Shown here: positions 25,147-42,078 of the stretch, in pieces | How the letters are laid out: every line of letters begins with the position of its first letter | Position numbering within the stretch: position 1 is the stretch's first letter | Assembly: GCA_965197925.1 (NCBI GenBank) | Contig: CBDAOC010000020.1 | Span: 832,001 to 896,000, forward strand | From: Nitrososphaerales archaeon | GTDB lineage: Archaea > Thermoproteota > Nitrososphaeria > Nitrososphaerales > UBA213 | Direction of reading: 5' to 3' | Length of the DNA: 64,000 nt | Notes under the pieces: model-generated | Told to the model about the DNA's origin: nothing | Seen by the model: the letters and a program-made list of their open reading frames with translations, nothing else | The model's database searches: none | Translations under genes and position numbers: made by a program

Positions 25147-26209
25147 GAGCCTATCCTAAAATTCTAGCTGATAGTTAATGATTGGTAGAAATAATATCAT
25201 TTAGAATGCAAGAATATTAGTTCAAACTGTCAGGTTTAGTTTTCTTACTATTGATTTTATTAGTATTGTAGATAGTAGATACTAGAAACAGTTGCATTAA
25301 CGTGTTTATGACACTACCAATAACCAATATATCGCTCTATACACTATTAGGCAGTTAGCAAATTCTACTAGCGCCTGATAATTTTCCTCTCTCTTCTCGA
25401 ACCTTACCAATAACTTTCTGAACCTGTTATGCCAAGATGCGGTTCTTTCTACAACCCATCTCTTTGCTTTGTACAAATTCTTTTTCAATACTTCACCCTT
25501 ATGACGAATGTGATCCACATATCCCCTTCCTAACTCCATATTTCATACTCCATACTCTATCTCAGGGAAATCATATCCTATTCATGCATATGTTCTGTTT
25601 AACTTTGGGCCTATCAACAACAATGCTATCTATTGTAGGAAAGGCTGATTTCATATCGTGCTTGTTTGCTCCAGTAATTACAGATGAGAGAGGAATACCT
25701 CTTCTATCAACCAGCATGTGACGTTTGGTACCTAGCTTGCCTCTATCCGTTGGGTTTGCTCCGGTCGTTTTCCCCCTAATGGGGCCTTCGGTACGCTATC
25801 CATGGATTGCCAGTCCCATCCTATACCCTTCAATTCATCATATATTTCCAGCAGCCTCTTCCATACCTTCTTGAATACTCCTATCCCAATCCATTCCTGA
25901 AATCTTGCATGGCAAGTTGAGCCAGAACCAAATTCTTTAGATACTTTCTTCCACTGGCATCCAGTTCTTAATACATACAGTATTCCATTCAACACTTTTC
26001 TAAATGGCACAGCTGGCCTTCCAACTGTTCTTGCTGGTTTCTCTGGTAGCAACACTAGTTTGAACTCTTCCCATAGATTGTCTGGTATATGCCATATGGT
26101 CGGCATGCTCTTTTTCTTTGATTTTCTCACAAATTTAGCTAGAGAGGACAGATCTAGATCTGTTTCGGTATAAACAATTAGGCTATGATGTTAATTTTCG
26201 GATAAGCTC
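25147..26209 (-). mobile_element. IS5-family element (IS1031-like), defective
   Basis: TIRs GAGCCTATCCTAAAATT / GAGCTTATCCGAAAATT, TTA target duplication, ILYVLRTGCQW, RWVVERTASW, GGGGAAAA slippery site plus an extra frameshift. Confidence 0.88.
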
Positions 26210-26381
26210 TTATTCTCTCTGCAATTTTTCCTTTAATTGATGAAGAATCTGTTGCCTTGACGTCGGACGGAGTTTACGTTGTGATGAAGCATACAAAAAA
26301 GATGACTTTGGTATCTGTGAAGAATCAAAGTGATGAGGCATTATATGGTGTTGTGCTGGAGAACCCTAATGGTGACATAAG

Positions 26382-27547
26382 CAACTGATCCCAAAACTGA
26401 TCATTTAGTGAATAATTGACGATCATTTGGATCTATTTGCAATGCTGCCCGTAGCAGATCATGAAATTTCAGGAGATAACAGGTGAACAATGGAAGATGA
26501 TATCACCGCATCTCCCAAAGCCAGCCAGAACCGGAAGGCCAAGGGCAGACGACAGAAAGACAGTCAACGGAATCCTGTTTGTCGGGATAACAGGATGCAG
26601 GTGGACTGGGATGTCACAAAGGTACGGCTCCAAATCAACTGCGCACCGCAGACTGCAGAACTGGCAGCGACGTGGAATATGGAAGAATATCCTCTCCGCT
26701 GCAGTCAAATCAGCCCACAGATCAGGCAAGATGCAGCTGCAAAAAACGGTCGATTCGTCATCAGTTCCGGCCAAAAAAGGGGAAGCGTCATAGGATACAA
26801 CGGATTCAACAGGATTTCAGGCACAAAAATACACGTTGCGGTGGAACAAAACGGACTGCCAGTCTCAGTAGTGATGGATCCTGCAAATCAGCATGACTCT
26901 GCAAGATTTGTAGACGTGATGGATGGCATCTCACAATATCTGGATGAGAGATCTATCAGAAAAATTGCGCGGTGCCAAGCAGACAAGGGCTATGATGCAG
27001 AATTCATCAGGAAATACCTTACCAAAAGAAAAATCTCTGACTGCATACCTTACAGAAAAAACAGTAAGACACAACAACAAAATGATGATACAGAACAATA
27101 CCTATACGGCAAGACGCGCTATGTTGTGGAGAGATTCTTTGCCTGGTTGAAGAATGGGTTCCACAGAACCAGGATCAGATAGAGAAGAATGCACAAAACT
27201 ATCTGGCATTTGTTATGATTGATACAGAACAATACCTATACTGTGTGAAATACAATCTAGGCAATTGCCTTAGAATCATAACCCTTGTCTGCATAAACTG
27301 ATGTAATTTGTTTTATTGAATCATCATCTAGATAGTCAGATGTTTTCCAATCAATTAATCTAGAGAGTCAATACCTATACGGCAAGACGCGCTATGTTGT
27401 GTTGAGAGATTCTTTGCCTGGTTGAAGAATGGGTTCCACAGAACCAGGATCAGATATGAGAAGAATGCACAAAACTATCTGGCATTTGTTATCATTTCGT
27501 GTAATGGAGATTATGATGGATGTATTGGAGAGTATTGGGATGACTTC
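26382..27547 (+). mobile_element. IS5-family element (IS427-like two-ORF), copy 1, with internal rearrangement
   Basis: ILFVGITGCRW, AAAAAAGGGG frameshift motif, ADKGYD, RYVVERFFAW; AAG target duplication; 3' part duplicated around a foreign patch at 27217-27368. Confidence 0.9.
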
Positions 27548-28055
27548 AAGATTTGTGAAGGCAAGGGGTTGGGATAGAGAGAGAGTGGATGCTAATAAAG
27601 TAGTTGAGGGCGATCGACCAATCATGCCCGGCAATAATTTGATAATTCTACTGATAACAAGAATTCCTGCATCCTCCTTGATGTGGACTGCAACCGATCG
27701 ATTCGAAAACATCCTAGCAAATGGAACTGTGATTGAACGTTCTCCGGAGATCAGAGTGGAGGCCGAGCCCGAAAGAACTGTTGGTGAGAATGAACCTAAG
27801 ACTGAATCAAAATCACAGAAAATCGTAGTTACACCTAGTGACACTTACGTATCATTTGTTGTTGATGAATTGAGCTCATGTCCTCTTTTCATTAAGGTAA
27901 TAACCTTTGTTAGTAGCCAACCAATATCCTTCGAAGTTGTAGATAAGCCGGATTGGCTAGATTTGAAAGTTAGTGAAACCGGACTCGATCTCTATTACAA
28001 CTGTCCCTCTGAACAGATAGTTGGTGCACTAACAAGGCTCCTTACACTGTCAGTC

Positions 28056-28101
28056 AAATCCGATGGTCAGGTTGTTGAAAATCCGATGGTCAGGTTGTTG
28101 A
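28056..28101. repeat. 23-bp frameshifting tandem duplication
   Basis: AAATCCGATGGTCAGGTTGTTGA x2. Confidence 0.9.
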
Positions 28102-29137
28102 TAACATAAACATTACCATTGATGGTCTCATAAAACCAGAAGTGATTCCTTCTAAGGAGGAATTCCAAGAGAAGGAACATCAACTCTTGGGTGATGCATA
28201 CATCCAAGGACGTGCAATGATAACATGTACGGACTATGGTGGAGATCCTAAGATAACCATTAGAATTGATGTTGTTAAAGCCCATCATGCTAAAGGTCGA
28301 AATTTGATTTCAGCTTTTATTGTTGACATTACGAAGAATGGTCCGGATAGCTACATACAAATTGGAAAGAGTGGTATACCCCATGTTGATTATGATTATA
28401 TCGCCTTCCAAGGTTTCTTTGGTAGCAAAGATTTTTCCAGAACTACTAACGATTCATGTCCTATAGGCGATGTAGGAAGAATAGTAGTGGTTATTGGAAA
28501 CTCTCCCCCTTCTGATCAAGATTCATTAAGCGAAGGCATTATAGACATCATAGCAGCCTCGAATTCTGGTACTGCCCAGATGGGCAAACTCTGAATATTT
28601 TGGTTCTGCTAAAGTTTCTGCTATTCTAACAATTTTTTAAATGAGGTAGTGTTAATTACACTTGAATTTGACTATTCTTTATTATCACGTCAAGCCAGCG
28701 AAGTCATATTCCCATATATTATAGATATGTATATTCTAAATTCTCCCAATTCATATGAAGTAGATTGCATGTGTATAATTATCAGTGTCTTTACCTAGAA
28801 TCATTTAAAGATAAGAAACATGGACACAGTAAATCTGCTAAGCAACCATAAATTGTAATGATGTGTATCTCATTGATCCAAACTCTTTTTTATTCTCACT
28901 TTGGAAGTATGCTAAATCTCCAATTGGATACATTGTATAGTTCAGTCTCACAACCTTGTTAATGCAAGAGATGGTTTCTTAGGACTTTCCCTCCCTACAA
29001 AATACAATCCATAGTTGTTCAACCGATGAACATTATTAGAATAGAACTGTCCAAGTCTATCATATTATGCTATAGCATCTTCATATATGTAATTCATGAA
29101 GGGTAGAACTGAACATAAATAACGCTTTAAAATATTT

Positions 29138-30404
29138 GAGGCTTGGGCGTAATTTGGCTCGAAACGATAAGATCAGGTTCTAGTTTTTATTGTTGATATG
29201 TTTAGCTCAGACTCGATACTTCTTCGTATATTATTTTTGATTGACGTGATTCCTCGGACAAAACCTCTTAAGAAGAGAGGTAAACCCTACTACTATTCTC
29301 CTACAGTTATGGTGAGATGCTTCATCGTTAGAGTATGGGTAAGAATACCAAGCAACAATGTGTTACATGAATATTTTTCGATAGACATGCCATACAACAG
29401 GAAGGTAATGAAGGCATGTGGTCTTGATAGATTACCAGACAGAAGAACATTCGACAGAAGGTCAAGGCCATATCAATTGACATAAGATCAAGGATAGGTG
29501 CTATGGGTATGCTCTTCATAAAAGATGGGTTGGTAGACTCATCCATAGTATCCGTTGACAGTTCATTGTTGAAAGCAAAGGGACATGTATGGCACAAATC
29601 TAGCATGAAGAAGAATGAAGTGCCACGCTCCGGTATAGATACAGATGCTCGATGGGGCTACAGCAGAACCAAGGGATGGATATTCGGATACAAGATGCAT
29701 CTAGCATGTAGCACAGGTTCGTTGATAGTTCCATTATCAGCTGATTTCACAACAGTTAACATTACTGATAACAAGATGTATGAAAGCATAACATCTTCAT
29801 TGCCTACAGGAATGGTAAGGTATGTTGTAGGATATGAAGGATATGAAGGATATGAAGGATATGAAGGATATGAAGGATATGAAGGATATGAAGGATATGA
29901 AGGATATGAAGGATATGGAAGGATATGAAGGATATGAAGGATATGAAGGATATGAAGGATATGAAGGATATGAAGGATATGAAGGATATGAAGGATATGA
30001 AGGATATGAAGGATATGATGATCACAAGTTATGTGATTTCAGCAGGTATAGAGGGCATCCAGTATTCCCATTGGAAAGGTATAGGCATACTACAGATAAT
30101 AATAGACTGGCATTGCTGTAGTTCTATAACTCTGAATATGGGCAGCATGTATATTCACAAAGAAGCATAAGTGTTGAGCCATTGATAGAGCAGATAAAGG
30201 ATGTATTTACCATAGATCCATTGCCAGTTAGAGGATTTGATAAAGCTAGGAGCATCGTTCTGATTTCTATATTGCTATACCAGCTGATGGTTTACTACAA
30301 CTACTTGACAGGAAGACCATTAAGGGCATTGAAGCACATGTTGGGAAGTTAATCAATCAGAGGCATCAAGTTATTTTTGTTATATGGAATAATGCCCATG
30401 TCTC
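29138..30404 (+). mobile_element. DDE (IS4/IS5-superfamily-like) IS, copy 1, pseudogenised
   Basis: Ends GAGGCTTGGGCGT / ATGCCCATGTCTC; VSVDSS, DTDARWG, FGYKMH, SVEPLI; frameshift, internal TAG and 9-bp repeat expansion. Confidence 0.85.
29830..30019. repeat. (GGATATGAA) minisatellite, ~20 units
   Basis: 9 units, one 10-nt variant, 10 units, terminal GGATATGAT. Confidence 0.95.
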
Positions 30405-30761
30405 ATATATTTATCAATTATAATCAGAATCCCATGCTAGTAGAATAATACAACATTGTTTCCTTTTTTTATGAATTCCCTACGTTGTTCAATGAGATAG
30501 TTATCTTCTAAGTTAATAGAATCAATCCTCCACCGCAATTTCGGTAATCGTCTGTTGATCTACTATTTCTATATCAATCCCGCTTGGCAGCTTTTTGTAA
30601 TATTCTTTCAAGGATTGAGGATGTCTCATCAAAGGCTTCATCCCCCAACAATAAGTAGCAAGAATCTATCGTCGTAACCATCAAATTTTGATCCTGGGTG
30701 GCCTAGAGCAAAACATATCGTTAAATTTCTTCTAAGAAAATTCATTCATGACTCATTCCAG

Positions 30762-32510
30762 TCAGGCATTGGTGTACACACTTGGAGATGCCAATGGAAT
30801 TCCCCCCTTACTTAATATGAACATCTTAATTGTGTACGTGTCCAACTCCTCAGTTATCCAACTCTTGTTAAAGATAATTTCATCATAGGGCTCGATTTGA
30901 ATACTCCTTGTTTCAATATGTGATGTTATTCCATCCCTATTCGCTATAAGCAATATTAGATCTGCAGCTATCCTATTATCAACACTGTTTTTAATTAGAG
31001 CTGACATTCTAAAGAGCAGACTAGACTTACCAGTATGTAATTCTACATTGAAATCTGTAGTAGAAAGCATGAATTCGGTGAGGGGATCGGCGATAAAGAT
31101 TCTATACTCTAGAACTGTAGATTCATTCCCTGCAATATCTTCTACTTTCAACTCTAGTTTATATGCACCAAGCCGAGGGATCTTGAAGGATATTTCGTAT
31201 GGAAATGACGCTGATTCAGTTTCCAATTTCTGCCAGTCAGTATCCAGAGCAGCTGAGTAGTTTCCATAACGGTAGTATACAGATTTCACACCGCTTATGA
31301 GATCATTTGGTAGAATTCTGAATGTAATGCTCTCGTTCGGAAAGGCCCGAACTATTATACACTGACGGTACCGTTCCTCATTCTTGTACTTGTCACAGTT
31401 GCTTCCTGTAAAAACGTTCTCTCTGCTTTCAGTAGAAATACTCAACACAGATAGCCTTGGTGGAAGTGTATCGACATATATGGAGAGTTTCTTTGGGACT
31501 TCTCTATTACCCATATTATCTTGGGCAAACCACCAGACACCAACCCTCCCAAGATCAATTTCATTGCGACGTGATAACGTCATATTTTCTCCTGGTTGTA
31601 AGGAACAGGCATTCCTGGTGCATAGGTTCCCCGCCGAGTCCCAATACTGTACAACTATATGACGCACGCCGGATGGCACACCTATATCGTTATGATCTAT
31701 GGCATTGAATGTTGCAACTGGAAACCTGTCATAATACCATTTGGTTTCATTATTGTACAATCCGTCAATTAAAACACTACTCGTAGGAGCCGTAAGATCA
31801 TAAGAAACAACAGACACCCTAAACACCCCGGAACGGTCCACAGGACCATATCCTAGCTTTTCTGCGATTATCCGCCAATTATGAAGTTTTGATTCCAACG
31901 GTGTAGTCGTATATGTGTAGATACCTTCTCTCTGTTTTGTTAAATTCACCGTCATGCCATTATGAATGGCCTCGATATTATCGGGGTCTATTAGATCTAT
32001 TCTATCAAAAAATAAAATTGTAATTTTGGCAGTTTGACCTACAAAATAATCATTGCGATCTTCATAAAATCCTACCTTCATGAGCTTAGGGTGTATCTCT
32101 AATCTACCAGCAGTGATACTTTTTGATCCAGTATAATGATCCTTTGAACCGTAATACTGATCACGACCATCAAAAATGGCAAAGATGGTAATAGTACCTT
32201 CTTTCCCACCTTGAATAAGCTCTGCAATCCATGAAGTTTCATATACTCCATCCTCATTGGTCCATGCCGTAATCAGTAATATGGATTCAGTTTCTCTTTC
32301 TTCCACAATTCTAATGGGCATATTAAAAAGACCCTCGCCGGTAGCTGATCTCAGAGTACCAGTAAATACAACCTCATCTCCAGGTGCAACCTTGGATGTA
32401 TGTAGATGGAAAGTCAAGCGAGTTGCCATATTATTATCTGCGATCGCAGTGGAAGAAATTCCTGCTAGAAATAATATCACTGTCAGTGACACGGCCGAAT
32501 ATTTAATCAT
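30762..32510 (-). CDS. Secreted multidomain Ig-like surface protein
   Basis: Signal peptide from ATG 32510; N-terminal module resembles the 3090/5328/6297 paralogs (IDPDNI, LTKQREGIYTY); C-terminus resembles that of the 46048 ORF. Confidence 0.75.
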   Translation of the reverse strand: MIKYSAVSLTVILFLAGISSTAIADNNMATRLTFHLHTSKVAPGDEVVFTGTLRSATGEGLFNMPIRIVEERETESILLITAWTNEDGVYETSWIAELIQGGKEGTITIFAIFDGRDQYYGSKDHYTGSKSITAGRLEIHPKLMKVGFYEDRNDYFVGQTAKITILFFDRIDLIDPDNIEAIHNGMTVNLTKQREGIYTYTTTPLESKLHNWRIIAEKLGYGPVDRSGVFRVSVVSYDLTAPTSSVLIDGLYNNETKWYYDRFPVATFNAIDHNDIGVPSGVRHIVVQYWDSAGNLCTRNACSLQPGENMTLSRRNEIDLGRVGVWWFAQDNMGNREVPKKLSIYVDTLPPRLSVLSISTESRENVFTGSNCDKYKNEERYRQCIIVRAFPNESITFRILPNDLISGVKSVYYRYGNYSAALDTDWQKLETESASFPYEISFKIPRLGAYKLELKVEDIAGNESTVLEYRIFIADPLTEFMLSTTDFNVELHTGKSSLLFRMSALIKNSVDNRIAADLILLIANRDGITSHIETRSIQIEPYDEIIFNKSWITEELDTYTIKMFILSKGGIPLASPSVYTNA

Positions 32511-33122
32511 CGTCACAAAAGTATGTGTTCGTTGGATCACTATATAGGTTTCAACACCAACAGTAACTAACAAATAATCCCATAAAGCTATCTTCAAAGG
32601 TGAAATATTGTTTAGAATTATGGAATTGATTCTCTATGTTACCTTTGCTGCAAAAACACCAATATCTTCACCCTATAAAAATTGAATATTTCTCAGACCT
32701 AATTCGGATAATACTTGATACGACGATGTAGGTCTATTTATTCAACCGTGAGATCATACAAAGGCGCAGAATTCAGAGATAAAATGTCTAATATCAATGG
32801 TTTGGAATCTAATCTTAACTCTTCCTTTCAGCAAATGTCTAATCTACACATATTTCCCTTCAGCTGAATTATAGAAAAGCCTTTTGGCATACACAATTTC
32901 ATTTATTGTGATTTTGAAAATATGTACTTAATTTAAGAACACTATACTCCCTCTTGTTTTTCACTAAGATTATTTTGATGGATAATTAATGCTAGGGACG
33001 TACATCGTATCCAGAACAGTAATGCTGATTGAAATTTGGTATGGATAGAAAAGGAAATCGATATTCTTTAAGATCACTAGTACCAATATGTAAAACATAA
33101 TCACAAAACCTTATAGATAGCT

Positions 33123-34222
33123 GAGACTTAGGCATAATTCAATTATAATATTATTTTGAAATTATTACTATTAACTTCCCAACATGTGCTTCAATGCCCT
33201 TAATGGTCTTCCTGTCAAGTAGTTGTAGTATACCATCAGCTGGTATAGCAATATAGAAATCAGAACGATGCTCCTAGCTTTATCAAATCCTCTAACTGGC
33301 AATGGATCTATGGTAAATACATCCTTCATATGCTCTATCAATGGCTCAACACTTATGCTTCTTTGTGAATATACATGCTGCCCATATTCAGAGTTATAGA
33401 ACTACAGCAATGCCAGTCTATTATTATCTGTAGTATGCCTATACCTTTCCAATGGGAATACTGGATGCCCTCTATACCTGCTGAAATCACATAACTTGTG
33501 ATCATCATATCCTTCATATCCTTCATATCCTACAACATACCTTACCATTCCTGTAGGCAATGAAGATGTTATGCTTTCATACATCTTGTTATCAGTAATG
33601 TTAGCTGTTGTGAAATCAGCTGATAATGGAACTATCAACGAACCTGTGCTAGATGCTAGATGCATCTTGTATCCGAATATCCATCCCTTGGTTCTGCTGT
33701 AGCCCCATCGAGCATCTGTATCTATACCGGAGCGTGGCACTTCATTCTTCTTCATGCTAGATTTGTGCCATACATGTCCCTTTGCTTTCAACAATGAACT
33801 GTCAACGGATACTATGGATGAGTCTACCAACCCATCTTTTATGAAGAGCATACCCATAGCACCTATCCTTGATCTTATGTCAATTGATACGGCCTTGACC
33901 TTCTGTCGAATGTTCTTCTGTCTGGTAATCTATCAAGACCACATGCCTTCATTACCTTCCTGTTGTATGGCATGTCTATCGAAAAATATTCATGTAACAC
34001 ATTGTTGCTTGGTATTCTTACCCATACTCTAACGATGAAGCATCTCACCATAACTGTAGGAGAATAGTAGTAGGGTTTACCTCTCTTCTTAAGAGGTTTT
34101 GTCCGAGGAATCACGTCAATCAAAAATAATATACGAAGAAGTATCGAGTCTGAGCTAAACATATCAACAATAAAAACTAGAACCTGATCTTATCGTTTCG
34201 AGCCAAATTACGCCCAAGCCTC
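33123..34222 (-). mobile_element. DDE IS, copy 2 (inverted relative to copy 1), pseudogenised
   Basis: Near-identical to 29138 element with the same frameshift and TAG; two GGATATGAA units; TIRs GAGGCTTGGGCGTAATT / GAGACTTAGGCATAATT. Confidence 0.88.
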
Positions 34223-36879: not shown

Positions 36880-37680
36880 AATGGGAATTATCTAAGAGAT
36901 GATGTGAGAATATTTAACCTTTTATTGAATAGTTCATTTAAAGTGATTAATTGCTAGACGTATAATCGCATTTATACTAATTTACACAAAAAATAAAATC
37001 ATCAAATATATTTTGCAACTTTCATCCCAATTGAATAGATGAAGGTTCTTACTCAAATTAAATATCATTCGTAAGAAAATGGTAAAACTACAACTAAATG
37101 GAACTAGTACTATGGTCTGAGATAGTAATTACCAAACTAGAAACTTCACAATTTTGTAAGATTATTCTTGACAAGTCACACGGCGGCACATATGCGTGTA
37201 TTTATACGCCCGCGTGTACTCTAATAATATGAAGGCAAGCCTCCAAGTCTGCAAAGGTAAATCCTACACCATCTTTATCTAGTCTATAAAAGCAGAAGAG
37301 ACAAGGGTTAGGTACAGGCAAAGACTCAGGAAGTTCCTTACTGTTGTTTGTCATGATACCGAAAGCCTAGCTGATTTGGGAAGGTCTAACCCAAAGAAGC
37401 TAACGGAAGTCATAATAACTTACATATTGAAGGAGAAGGAACGCGTCAGGTCTAAGGAAATAAAACCTGGTACTCTTGCAGAGAATATCAAACCTGTCAG
37501 ACTCTTTTTCGAAATGAACGACATACTTCTAAACTAGAAGAAACTTTACAGACTCTTGCTAGGGCAGGAAGAGAAAACGGAGGACAGAGCTTATTCAAAG
37601 GAAGAGATTGCAAAACTCCTTGAGTTTGCTGACATTCGATCAACAGTCATCGTCCTTAGTATGGTGAGCTCTGGTTGCAG

Positions 37681-38570
37681 GGTAAGGTAGGGTAAGGTAG
37701 GGTAAGGTAGGGTAAGGTAGGGTAAGGTAGGGTAAGGTAGGGTAAGGTAGGGTAAGGTAGGGTAAGGTAGGGTAAGGTAGGGTAAGGTAGGGTAAGGTAG
37801 GGTAAGGTAGGGTAAGGTAGGGTAAGGTAGGGTAAGGTAGGGTAAGGTAGGGTAAGGTAGGGTAAGGTAGGGTAAGGTAGGGTAAGGTAGGGTAAGGTAG
37901 GGTAAGGTAGGGTAAGGTAGGGTAAGGTAGGGTAAGGTAGGGTAAGGTAGGGTAAGGTAGGGTAAGGTAGGGTAAGGTAGGGTAAGGTAGGGTAAGGTAG
38001 GGTAAGGTAGGGTAAGGTAGGGTAAGGTAGGGTAAGGTAGGGTAAGGTAGGGTAAGGTAGGGTAAGGTAGGGTAAGGTAGGGTAAGGTAGGGTAAGGTAG
38101 GGTAAGGTAGGGTAAGGTAGGGTAAGGTAGGGTAAGGTAGGGTAAGGTAGGGTAAGGTAGGGTAAGGTAGGGTAAGGTAGGGTAAGGTAGGGTAAGGTAG
38201 GGTAAGGTAGGGTAAGGTAGGGTAAGGTAGGGTAAGGTAGGGTAAGGTAGGGTAAGGTAGGGTAAGGTAGGGTAGGGTAAGGTAGGGTAGGGTAAGGTAG
38301 GGTAAGGTAGGGTAAGGTAGGGTAAGGTAGGGTAAGGTAGGGTAAGGTAGGGTAAGGTAGGGTAAGGTAGGGTAAGGTAGGGTAAGGTAGGGTAAGGTAG
38401 GGTAAGGTAGGGTAAGGTAGGGTAAGGTAGGGTAAGGTAGGGTAAGGTAGGGTAAGGTAGGGTAAGGTAGGGTAAGGTAGGGTAAGGTAGGGTAAGGTAG
38501 GGTAAGGTAGGGTAAGGTAGGGTAAGGTAGGGTAAGGTAGGGTAAGGTAGGGTAAGGTAGGGTAAGGTAG
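37681..38570. repeat. (GGTAAGGTAG) tandem array, 890 bp
   Basis: 88 decamers plus two extra GGTAG pentamers at ~38271-38290. Confidence 0.97.
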
Positions 38571-38997
38571 GGTAGGCGCCCTTCCCAACTTGAAGGTGAA
38601 GGATATCATACCGGTTGAAATTGATGGAAAGGTAGTTTGTAGAAGAATTTGTTTATGCAAATTCGGCAGGGGAACTTGTAACATTCGTGAGCTTAGGGTG
38701 TTATCATGCTATTGAGAATTATTACGAATATAGAAAACGTAATCATGAAAAGCTCAACACGGAATCTCCCTTGTTGCGCGATTCTGTCAGGGTGTACAAC
38801 GTGAAAGAGATAGAACGGTGCAGGCCCCTTGAATAGAACGATCAAGATATCATGAAGACGTACAAATCCGGTCTTAGGGTGAAAATGGATGCTTGCAGAT
38901 ATGGGGTCTCAACTGACCGTGGTTTCCGCAAGTTCTTTAACGCCCAAGCAAAGCTTGCGGAGATGGAACCGCTTCATAAGGAAATGCTCTTGGGTCA

Positions 38998-39157
38998 CAA
39001 AGTAGGACTGGAGAGGAGCCATTATCTGAAAAGATCCGATATCTTGTCGATGTCATCACCTGTCAAAGTAGGACCAGAGAGAAGCTATTATGCAAACAGG
39101 GCCGGGATTGAAATACAGGGTGACAAGCCAGAGTAGGACCAGGAAGGATCTATTATC
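38998..39157. CRISPR. Non-canonical CRISPR-like array inside the integrase gene (3 repeats, 2 spacers)
   Basis: 29-bp repeats at 38998, 39064, 39129 (consensus CAAAGTAGGACCAGAGAGGAGCTATTATC, 2-4 mismatches each) with unrelated 37- and 36-bp spacers. Confidence 0.6.
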
Positions 39158-39469
39158 GATCCCCCTGAGAGTGCCCTTCTGAAAGACTACAGGGTCATGC
39201 CAAATCTTACAATCAACGATGCAGAGCCGGTACGACTTGCCCAGAGTTGAAAAGGGACTGAACTGAAATTGAGCCGCTGAAGGATAAAGTTGCAGGGTTT
39301 GGGGAACTAGCCAAACACCTCAAAGAGCATGGTGTACTGAAGGATACCTCTTTCTAGAATATGCTCAGATCCCCTTGAACCTGAACATGGCTTCTACACA
39401 TGGCAACTAACAAAACCAAATCAATATAATTTTTGTAATCAGGCATCCTGGCTCCGTTGGGCACATCAT

Positions 39470-39595
39470 TTCCACATAAGAGCTTGAACCATATCCGTCC
39501 TCGAACTTCACCCGTAGGGTTTCCAACAGTGTGAATGTTAACACGCGTATTTCCCGACGTCATCTCGGCAATGAGTGCAGACAACATCTTACCAT
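39470..39595 (-). pseudogene. CHRD-domain C-terminal fragment
   Basis: LSALIAEMTSGNTRVNIHTVGNPTGEVRGRI matches the CHRD pattern YVNVHT..NP.GEIRGQI. Confidence 0.65.
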
Positions 39596-39625
39596 CCTTC
39601 AACCCTGCAATGGTTCGATTCAAAC
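39596..39625 (-). CRISPR. Solitary CRISPR repeat
   Basis: CCTTCAACCCTGCAATGGTTCGATTCAAAC, 4 mismatches to the 41623 repeat. Confidence 0.75.
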
Positions 39626-39851
39626 CTATAGTATTTCACCGGGATAAGGAAACAGTGGATAGGCAACCAGCCAGGTATCTAATCCACCGAGTAATGACGG
39701 CAATAAAATTATTGCAAGGTGGAAAATAATATTTTTTAGGCGTGATCCTCTCTGCAAAAATGCAAAATAAGCATTGTTTGAGGATACTTATTTAACCATT
39801 AAGTGCCATAATACGTAGTAAAATCCAAAAAGAAGGCAAGAGATAGATACC

Positions 39852-39882
39852 CTTTCAACCCCTACAATGGTTCGATTCAAAC
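39852..39882 (-). CRISPR. Solitary CRISPR repeat
   Basis: CTTTCAACCCCTACAATGGTTCGATTCAAAC (one extra C). Confidence 0.8.
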
Positions 39883-40179: not shown

Positions 40180-41056
40180 CAACTGATCCCAAAACTGATC
40201 ATTTAGTGAATAATTGACGATCATTTGGATCTATTTGCAATGCTGCCCGTAGCAGATCATGAAATTTCAGGAGATAACAGGTGAACAATGGAAGATGATA
40301 TCACCGCATCTCCCCAAGCCAGCCAGAACCGGAAGGCCAAGGGCAGACGACAGAAAGACAGTCAACGGAATCCTGTTTGTCGGGATAACAGGATGCAGGT
40401 GGACTGGGATGTCACAAAGGTACGGCTCCAAATCAACTGCGCACCGCAGACTGCAGAACTGGCAGCGACGTGGAATATGGAAGAATATCCTCTCCGCTGC
40501 AGTCAAATCAGCCCACAGATCAGGCAAGATGCAGCTGCAAAAAACGGTCGATTCGTCATCAGTTCCGGCCAAAAAAGGGGAAGCGTCATAGGATACAACG
40601 GATTCAACAGGATTTCAGGCACAAAAATACACGTTGCGGTGGAACAAAACGGACTGCCAGTCTCAGTAGTAATGTCCTGCAAATCAGCATGACTCTGCAA
40701 GATTTGTAGACGTGATGGATGGCATCTCACAATATCTGGATGAGAGATCTATCAGAAAAATTGCGCGGTGCCAAGCAGACAAGGGCCATGATGCAGAATT
40801 CATCAGGAAATACCTCACCAAAAGAAAAATCTCTGACTGCATGCCTTACAGAAAAAACAGTAAGACACAACAACAAAATGATAATACAGAACAATACCTA
40901 TACGGCAAGACGCGCTATGTTGTGGAGAGATTCTTTGCCTGGTTGAAGAATGGGTTCCACAGAACCAGGATCAGATATGAGAAGAATGCACAAAACTATC
41001 TGGCATTTGTTATCATTTCGTCGATTATGATGTATTGGAGAGTATTGGGATGACTT
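40180..41056 (+). mobile_element. IS5-family (IS427-like) element, copy 2
   Basis: Near-identical to the 26382 and 57035 copies; extra frameshift at GTAATGTCCTGC; inserted beside a TA run. Confidence 0.92.
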
Positions 41057-41556: not shown

Positions 41557-41738
41557 CTTTCAATCCTACAATAGTTTGATTCAAACAAAAAGGGTCAGTC
41601 GAAAAGATCGACTACATGACGCCTTTCAATCCTACAATAGTTCGATTCAAACGACTGATGTCAGGTTCCTTCACGGACTGGCACAAATAGCTTTCAATCC
41701 TATAATAGTTCGATTCAAACTAATAGTTCGATTCAAAC
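41557..41738 (-). CRISPR. CRISPR mini-array: three 30-bp repeats + 18-bp partial repeat, 2 spacers, no cas genes in window
   Basis: Repeats 41557-41586, 41623-41652, 41691-41720; minus strand GTTTGAATCGAACTATTGTAGGATTGAAAG with the ATTGAAAG end typical of type I-B-like repeats; spacers 36 and 38 bp. Confidence 0.92.
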
Positions 41739-41984
41739 TTGGTTAAAATTGTTCATTATTATATGATTGGAATGAATGAATTATTCTCTAATAGCCGGAC
41801 ACCTCGTAGAGTAATTCAAAGACAAACGTTCAACATATGCTTTCTATTGCCTCCTTTACTGGATTACCGCCATCATCGTTTAGAGAACAATCAACTGCGT
41901 TTAGCACAAGTCCACCCTTTGCTGAGCATTTTTATCTTGACTTTCATATTGGGTCATTATCTACCTTTAGGTTATGGTGATATT

Positions 41985-42078
41985 CTCAAAATATTCATCT
42001 ATGTTGATATTGGAGCATATTATACTAACTCAAAATATTCATCTATGTTGATATTGGAGCATATTATACTAACTCAAA
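41985..42078. repeat. 44-bp tandem duplication
   Basis: 41985-42028 = 42029-42072, CTCAAA microhomology. Confidence 0.9.

Follow-up and report, generated by a model that had tools for sequence, protein, structure and literature searches.

Casposons are integrated by a casposase of the Cas1 family, leaving target duplications of about 14-15 base pairs (bp) around kilobase inserts with terminal inverted repeats, and integrases of the SSV1 type carry attP inside int, with int split into two distant parts at a transfer RNA (tRNA) gene. For CRISPR arrays, non-canonical spacer integration and neo-CRISPR arrays were reportedly described in 2018 by Nivala, Shipman and Church, in Nat Microbiol, in Escherichia coli overproducing Cas1-Cas2. 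In the available sections of the sources, the off-target integrations lie elsewhere in the E. coli genome, and the natural evidence, from two other species, is circumstantial (bioRxiv 10.1101/148544; PMC7054753; PMC9456107). The available section of a study of Pyrococcus furiosus Cas1-Cas2, whose repeat is 30 bp, describes off-target full-site integration in vitro (Grainy et al., 2019; PMC6698737). As far as these sections go, the de novo birth of CRISPR arrays is an open question for which a single experimental route has been described, namely off-target integration under Cas1-Cas2 overproduction in E. coli. Here, we analyse a window of 64,000 nucleotides (nt) from a Nitrososphaerales archaeon (assembly GCA_965197925.1, contig CBDAOC010000020.1, positions 832,001 to 896,000, forward strand), in which a decayed tyrosine-integrase gene contains three copies of a 29-nt segment separated by two short fillers. 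The probable origin of this locus is two old off-target integrations by Cas1-Cas2, which would make it a natural two-spacer "neo-CRISPR". Positions are those of the window unless a contig is named (contig:position).

A triplicated segment in a decayed integrase gene

The 29-nt segment is present on the forward strand at 38998, 39064 and 39129, with spacings of 66 and 65 nt, and a repeat finder gave 86, 100 and 82% identity to the middle copy over 28 nt. Counted from the sequences, the pairwise differences among the three 29-mers come to 5, 6 and 7 of 29 positions, which amounts to 76-83% identity kept. When all 20 contigs of the assembly (2,910,306 nt) were searched on both strands with up to 6 substitutions allowed, the 29-mer was placed at these three positions only, which excludes a chance origin. 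The first copy (R1, 38998-39026) joins the upstream LLGH codons and encodes KVGLERSHY, with 1 difference from the sequence deduced from the homologues' KVGLERSYY. It is followed by a filler of 37 nt (S1, 39027-39063) and by the second copy (R2, 39064-39092), which encodes KVGPERSYY and has a derived CCA codon in common with the third. After a further filler of 36 nt (S2, 39093-39128), the third copy (R3, 39129-39157) joins the downstream RPPESALLKDY codons, standing one base out of frame and reading RVGPGRIYY. An extra T after CGA at 39160, recognized against the homologues' RPPE, restores the frame (131 + 1 = 132), and when the 131 nt and this T are taken out the gene reads LLGHKVGLERSHYRPPESALLKDY, compared with LLGHKVGLERSYYRPPESALLKDY in intact homologues. 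The earlier note on this DNA had described the three copies with periods of 66 and 65, their derivation from integrase coding sequence and the reading restored by removing two units and one base, and on all these points it was right.

The structure is also borne out by sequencing runs, where the earlier note had asked for support from reads. All sampled words of 38580-39400 were found in six public runs (2 studies), and in Logan contigs from 4/4 runs (2 studies) the stretch 38580-39700 is covered with 0 other letters, 0 gaps and no joints. The locus is spanned by one contig in 3/4 of these runs and by two overlapping contigs in the remaining one, run X3. These public runs may include the assembly's own source and are not independent strains. 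Because the run contigs reproduce the structure, an assembly artefact is excluded. Rfam CRISPR-DR gave no match at 38998-39157, and the 721-nt region of the locus had no DNA match among 60 relatives.

The gene that received the insertions is a tyrosine-integrase pseudogene at 37229-39357 on the forward strand. With a 94-amino-acid (aa) open reading frame (ORF) at 38852-39133 as query, one protein among 38 candidates was found at E <= 0.001, a 374-aa integrase (P0001, Pfam PF00589) whose 90% cluster has three members (P0001-3). By tblastn of P0001 against 37001-39500, the pseudogene is colinear with this protein from Met1 (37229) to the stop codon (39355-39357), with 140/152 residues identical in the N-terminal part and a clean 44-residue gap, in one frame, between ...LLGHKVGLERSHY and PPESALLKDY. 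Its defects comprise in-frame stops, frameshifts, an 896-bp microsatellite and the 131-nt insert. At 43/355 aligned positions (12%) the pseudogene residue is unlike all of P0001-3, with 5/27 and 9/35 in the last two pieces, which by our own arithmetic means that roughly 5% of nucleotides have changed in the gene as a whole and about 10% towards its C-terminal end.

In line with what the earlier note had expected of intact homologues, these carry the segment singly. It occurs once each in P0001-3, as LLGH(K/R)VGLERSYYRPPESALLKDY, once in a metagenomic protein that is 67% identical (L020), as LMGHKVGLEDAYYRPADDKLL, and once in two paralogues of the same genome, the pattern across intact homologues being ...GH(K/R/S)(V/T)G...YY. 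The homologous integrase loci are Nitrososphaeraceae-type records, which makes the organism a thaumarchaeon, in agreement with the assumption of the earlier note. No DNA closer than L020 (67% at the protein level) was found in genome, metagenome or viral collections, and the ancestral 29-mer was for this reason deduced from protein. The ancestor deduced from the homologues' KVGLERSYYR has 1 difference to R1, 4 to R2 and 6 to R3.

Sister events with empty sites

The strongest support for off-target integration lies outside the window, in sister events of the same architecture. The genome was scanned for exact direct repeats of at least 20 nt with a period of 30-160 nt and a filler unrelated to neighbouring sequence, which gave 341 raw pairs, 158 after a low-complexity filter and 21 isolated pairs when no other local self-similarity was allowed. 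Isolated pairs with a repeat (R) of at least 26 nt number 13 and represent 10 independent events, one event in an insertion sequence (IS) found in 4 copies being counted once. Periods are 64-73 in 6/10 events and 65-73 in 5/10, which is the range of the canonical arrays, where uniform periods would lead one to expect about 0.7 (binomial p about 3e-4; both figures our own arithmetic).

Events A (R 36, filler 37; C17:50384, C20:514583, C20:515586 and C20:533472) and B (R 37, filler 36; C20:730231) are situated in IS genes for a DDE transposase. Event C has an R of 36 and a filler of 36 (C20:935899), event E 31 and 34 (C19:180281), event F 31 and 39 (C17:116185) and event G 26 and 38 (C19:147098), and a further isolated pair at C19:161234 is within the range of R 26-36 and filler 34-39. 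Event D (C15:78685; R 36, filler 37) was removed by the strict filter because its flanks repeat too; it has the form X(37)-R(36)-F(37)-R(36)-X'(37), X and X' being about 97% identical, which looks as though a spacer inserted before had become the target in its turn. Both repeat copies are exact in events A-G. A bias of the targets towards mobile elements found no support: A, B and the integrase are mobile-element genes, but C-G stand beside ordinary genes.

Events A and B can be compared with their empty sites in a host IS of roughly 95 copies. In other IS copies, 88 alignments of the left flank of A and 92 of its right flank run up to a single R, and for B there are 93 on the left and 93 on the right; in base-level alignments of both events, the filled site equals the empty site plus R and filler, exactly. 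The target is thus single in the uninserted state in these IS copies, as it is at the integrase in the homologues. Each filler has an identified donor, that of A being 37/37 identical to unique host DNA at C13:68501-68537 and that of B 36/36 identical to unique host DNA at C19:469639-469674, in both cases within a unique host context that lacks flanking duplications. Paralogues with a single R exist for F too and, less cleanly, for G, and for E in detail for the left flank only. The four filled IS copies of event A have no variable column from -31 to +117 around R-F-R, and their IS flanks vary by 6-12%; this invariant patch is either constrained across the IS family or was spread by conversion.

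The sizes involved follow those of the organism's own CRISPR arrays. At the integrase the duplicated target measures 29 nt against own repeats of 30 and 31 nt, and elsewhere 36-37 nt against a 37-nt repeat. The integrase inserts of 37 and 36 nt compare with canonical spacers of 33-38 nt in 9/10 cases and with fillers of 34-39 nt in the sister events.

Likeness and source of the two fillers

The earlier note had called the two fillers unrelated, and for S1 this holds throughout. Local alignment against shuffles gave p 0.52 for S1 with S2, p 0.81 for S1 with the 60 nt downstream, p 0.76-0.92 for S1 and S2 with upstream sequence and p 0.23-0.52 for reverse complements; with dinucleotide shuffles and four scoring schemes, S1 compared with the 50 nt downstream gave p 0.91-0.98. 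The claim stands less well for S2, which weakly resembles the downstream integrase codons, a point weighed below. Donor searches in viral, plasmid and host sequence, also proposed in the earlier note, returned no source there for either filler. Neither has a match of k>=14 elsewhere in the genome, nothing significant was found for the fillers among 57 loci (all E >= 0.09), and among plasmids neither S1, S2 nor the whole 160-nt locus was matched. Among phages S2 was unmatched and S1 had chance-level matches only (E >= 2); for S2, IMG/VR held no exact match and 400 other genomes of the class no match with up to 3 mismatches.

A match to S2 did come from run X3, in which a separate contig of 837 nt, with a depth of 2.78 compared with 22.9 for the main contig, matches the window only at 39092-39126, at 34/35 positions and with no gap. 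Since 34/35 is beyond chance, S2 is most simply read as having a donor, or else a sister copy, on a different and less abundant DNA molecule of the X3 sample, which is what would be expected of a spacer taken from other DNA. The contig may alternatively be a diverged copy of the same integrase region. S2 also contains GGATTGAAA, a 9-mer shared with the conserved repeat end (...GGATTGAAAG/C) in each of the genome's three CRISPR families; the chance of this is about 0.005 by our own arithmetic, and the 9-mer overlaps the stretch that resembles downstream integrase codons.

Weighing the explanations

In the mechanism that we favour, a Cas1-Cas2 fusion acting with Cas4 would twice have placed spacer-length DNA at a non-CRISPR site in the 3' part of the integrase gene. 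Each insertion would have duplicated a 29-bp target of repeat length by staggered strand transfer followed by gap filling, so that a first event would have produced R1-S1-R and a second would have duplicated the right-hand copy and added S2. This order follows from the derived CCA codon shared by R2 and R3, because R1 and the homologues' Leu imply CTG, and it suggests the same polarity as in the canonical array (repeat GTTTG...GAAAG on the minus strand). Cas1-Cas2 as the enzyme, the former identity of the copies and the order of events are all inferred from sequence. The events are old, for the copies have since diverged to much the same degree as the C-terminal part of the pseudogene around them. 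The earlier note had proposed that two successive integrations both created an array and destroyed the gene. Its first half is the reading we regard as probable, with the sister events behind it and with each refuting test named in the note having gone its way; its second half is no more than possible, as the pseudogene also has stops, frameshifts and a microsatellite and the insertions may have killed the gene or struck a dead one.

Several observations weigh against this account. The copies differ at 5-7 of 29 positions, so that a perfect target duplication is deduced and not seen at the integrase, and R3 has 6 changes where about 1.6 would be expected at the gene-wide rate, a number that fits only the faster C-terminal part (5/27, 9/35). 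Neither the 29-mer nor the other targets resemble CRISPR repeats (ungapped identity against shuffles, 16 tests, lowest p 0.025), the two size classes of duplication (36-37 and 26-31) call for two rulers or two enzymes, and no common flank that could be a protospacer adjacent motif (PAM) is apparent by eye next to three donor contexts (A, B and part of E). Variants in unit number were not seen in the contigs of the 4 runs, which is no proof that none exist. In favour of the account, a relative with no Cas1 match (G016, one contig of 1,504,337 nt, scanned in 76 pieces) yielded 0 pairs, raw or isolated, against 341 raw and 21 isolated here, but this control is a weak one, the relative also being free of IS elements and tandem repeats. 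Lastly, S2 compared with the 50 nt downstream gave p 0.006-0.036 (four scoring schemes, dinucleotide shuffles), in a colinear alignment of TTGAAA---TACAGGGTG in its 3' half with CTGAAAGACTACAGGGTC, the LLKDYRV codons, and it also has the window-specific YRV junction, as would be expected of a decayed tandem copy. Many comparisons were made in this work, and p values near 0.01 decide nothing either way.

The rival that survives best, although we consider it unlikely, is replication or repair in which CRISPR proteins took no part, template switching or break repair having duplicated a short stretch and filled the junction from elsewhere, twice. The partial resemblance of S2 to adjacent downstream sequence and the targets' lack of likeness to CRISPR repeats would fit such an origin, as would the 896-bp microsatellite in the same pseudogene, a sign of local replication instability, and the fact that the donors of A and B have IS copies 0.3-1.1 kb away, a possible pointer to break-associated repair. 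On the other hand, the junctions of events A and B have no visible microhomology, and what was inserted is in each case a clean fragment in one piece, 36-37 nt long. Instead of being spread, the sizes gather at the repeat and spacer lengths that this organism has, and neither S1 nor S2 is templated by its surroundings, similarity to 300 and 1000 nt of flank on either side, both strands included, staying at chance level (lowest p 0.04 in 16 tests).

An old tandem triplication of a unit of roughly 66-72 nt, made up of the 29-mer and the following codons, with junctions at a CAAA microhomology and since decayed, is a good deal less credible. It would account for the colinear likeness of S2 to the downstream codons at a similar offset, for the 7 in-register agreements between S1 and S2 within their first 12 nt and for a total of insert and extra T of 132 nt, a multiple of 3. 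However, S1 is like neither S2 nor what lies downstream (p 0.5-0.98), whereas identity among the 29-mers is still 76-83%, and a decayed plain tandem triplication therefore cannot explain the locus: with 12% unique residue changes in the gene, neutral decay cannot erase a filler yet spare the repeat. It also offers no reason for the external 34/35 match of S2.

Tyrosine recombinases make their two strand exchanges 6-8 bp apart and are not known to duplicate 29 bp. The alternative raised in the earlier note, that the 29-mer is an SSV1-type attachment (att) core inside int and the short inserts are scars of integrase-mediated recombination, can be set aside as very improbable, for although the site is within an integrase gene and a minor variant in run X3 diverges left of about 39353, at the integrase stop, which may put the boundary of an element nearby, the pseudogene follows P0001 colinearly all the way from Met1 to the stop and is not split into distant N and C parts, no tRNA gene is found in the 64-kb window, and the 29-mer is nowhere else in the genome.

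Adaptation genes and canonical arrays

Off-target integration by Cas1-Cas2 calls for the enzymes, which the earlier note had suggested looking for elsewhere in the genome, and they are indeed there. Pfam Cas1 matches six places, two with the whole domain and no internal stop and four partial. One of the intact two is a 432-aa ORF in which Cas1 (307 bits) is fused to Cas2 (66 bits), adjoining Cas4 (156 aa) and an HD protein, all at C20:38968-42098; no CRISPR array is located within 13 kb of this cas4 and cas1-cas2 module. The second intact Cas1 is a solo protein of 398 aa among metabolic genes (C1:31.6-32.8 kb). Genome-wide, in an assembly that is 98.7% complete, there was no Pfam match to Cas6_C, RAMP, DevR/Cas7 or Cas5d, four families that do not cover every effector.

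The canonical mini-array of the window (41557-41738, minus strand) has three copies of a 30-nt repeat, GTTTGAATCGAACTATTGTAGGATTGAAAG, and a duplicated half-repeat of 18 nt, its spacers measuring 36 and 38 nt. As the earlier note had it, its periods are 66 and 68 (41557-41726) and it is 2.4 kb from the integrase locus. It has a weak CRISPR-DR2 match, below the gathering score. At its presumed leader-proximal end, the 3' half of the repeat (TAATAGTTCGATTCAAAC) is tandemly duplicated (41703-41739), and in the presumed leader (41985-42078) a stretch of 44 nt is tandemly duplicated without a mismatch. The 30-nt repeat is also present in two degenerate copies, with 4 and 6 mismatches and 257 nt apart, which lie at 39596-39882 on the minus strand and are the nearest CRISPR remnants, 440 nt from R3. 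The 30-nt family has only two loci, and one of them is thereby 0.44-2.6 kb from the integrase locus, a proximity for which our own arithmetic gives a chance of about 0.4%.

The genome as a whole has three repeat families (30, 31 and 37 nt) in tiny arrays, with 19 repeats and 10 spacers in all. Nine of the 10 spacers are 33-38 nt long and one is 22 nt; the 31-nt family has a spacer of 36 nt. Apart from a duplicated array and a repeated spacer, the 10 canonical spacers are without self matches. One three-repeat array of the 37-nt family is found twice, at C18:164620-164801 and C19:7563-7744, with the same spacers in both places; each copy follows an IS copy at a distance of about 460 nt, and the array seems to have moved or been duplicated together with the IS.

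A functional CRISPR array at the integrase was considered and rejected, the repeat being integrase coding sequence with no CRISPR-DR match in a genome with no effector match in the four Pfam families. We tentatively propose, as a possibility somewhat short of even, that the adaptation module stands alone beside vestigial arrays and runs free or did so recently, inserting spacer-sized and often host-derived DNA at non-CRISPR sites across the chromosome, breaking genes (IS transposases, the integrase) and seeding arrays.

Mobile-element setting of the locus

The integrase pseudogene and the CRISPR remnants lie among mobile-element debris. Between the degenerate repeats and the mini-array there is an IS4/5-type transposase gene in two frames (40259-41053, forward strand; DUF4096 and DDE_Tnp_1), and further IS4/5-type transposase genes and fragments with these domains occupy 25700-34200, with a microsatellite of a 9-nt unit (AGGATATGA), repeated 21 times, at 29829-30018. 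The microsatellite of the pseudogene itself (37679-38574, forward strand) consists of 89.6 copies of (AGGGTAAGGT), with a period of 10 and 99% matches, inside the box-I GCRVGALP codons. It is preceded by GCRV and followed by RVGALPNLK, having grown from the natural GTAGGGTAGG in these codons; short-read contigs stop about 36 nt before 38580, and its length of 896 bp is that of the assembly alone.

At the other end of the pseudogene, run X3 has a contig of 1224 nt, with a depth of 5.5 compared with 22.9 for the main contig, whose end matches 39353-39395 (43 nt) and which leftward is unlike the window. The point at which this minor variant departs from the window is precisely the stop codon of the integrase, where an integrated element perhaps has its right border. 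A CHRD-domain fragment (39354-39623, minus strand; Pfam 1.5e-06) overlaps a degenerate CRISPR repeat with its 5' end, and paralogous CHRD sequences elsewhere in the genome are the reason for extra run-contig matches at 39401-39581.

Comparison with known systems

The genome offers natural cases in which the signature of such integration is complete, with an empty site, a target duplicated exactly over a repeat length, inserted DNA as long as a spacer and a donor that could be located. The integrase locus would be the case in which a second spacer followed. The genome also suggests that interference genes are not needed for an adaptation module to be kept and to stay at work, in the role of an endogenous insertional mutagen by which mobile-element genes are sometimes struck. 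If the module did run free, the locus would be direct genomic evidence of de novo array birth and of the cost to the host of an unguarded integrase. The literature searched, at the level of listings and not of full texts, reports no archaeal or natural multi-event neo-CRISPR cases.

Among the less similar systems, SSV1-type integrases likewise have a repeated sequence in the integrase gene, but here int is colinear and the copies are 66 nt apart. Casposons would share with the locus a target-site duplication made by a Cas1-family enzyme, and a solo Cas1 of 398 aa is present here; in this genome, however, the duplications measure 26-37 bp and the inserts 34-39 nt. The organism's own canonical array agrees with the locus in period (66-68 versus 66/65), in spacer length (36-38 versus 37/36) and probably in polarity. 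Unlike that array, the locus has as its repeat an imperfect stretch of integrase coding sequence that does not resemble CRISPR repeats, with no leader or processing signal known. The P. furiosus reactions are, as here, archaeal, and in the available section of that study paired strand transfers fall 30-31 bp apart at non-CRISPR sites with no need of a leader (PMC6698737). The off-target sites described there share positionally conserved bases and G/C borders with the repeat, which the targets here do not, although the integrase 29-mer does start and end with C on the plus strand (PMC6698737).

The closest known phenomenon is neo-CRISPR integration in E. coli, and the locus is probably a natural case of that known kind of event. 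As far as the available sections on E. coli go, both have inserts of spacer length at non-CRISPR genomic sites, with the potential to seed arrays. There, Cas1-Cas2 was overproduced in a laboratory strain, whereas the events here are natural, took place in a thaumarchaeon and are old enough to have drifted. Unlike the E. coli cases in those sections, there are here two probable integrations in tandem inside an integrase gene, together with sister events that have empty sites and self-derived inserts.

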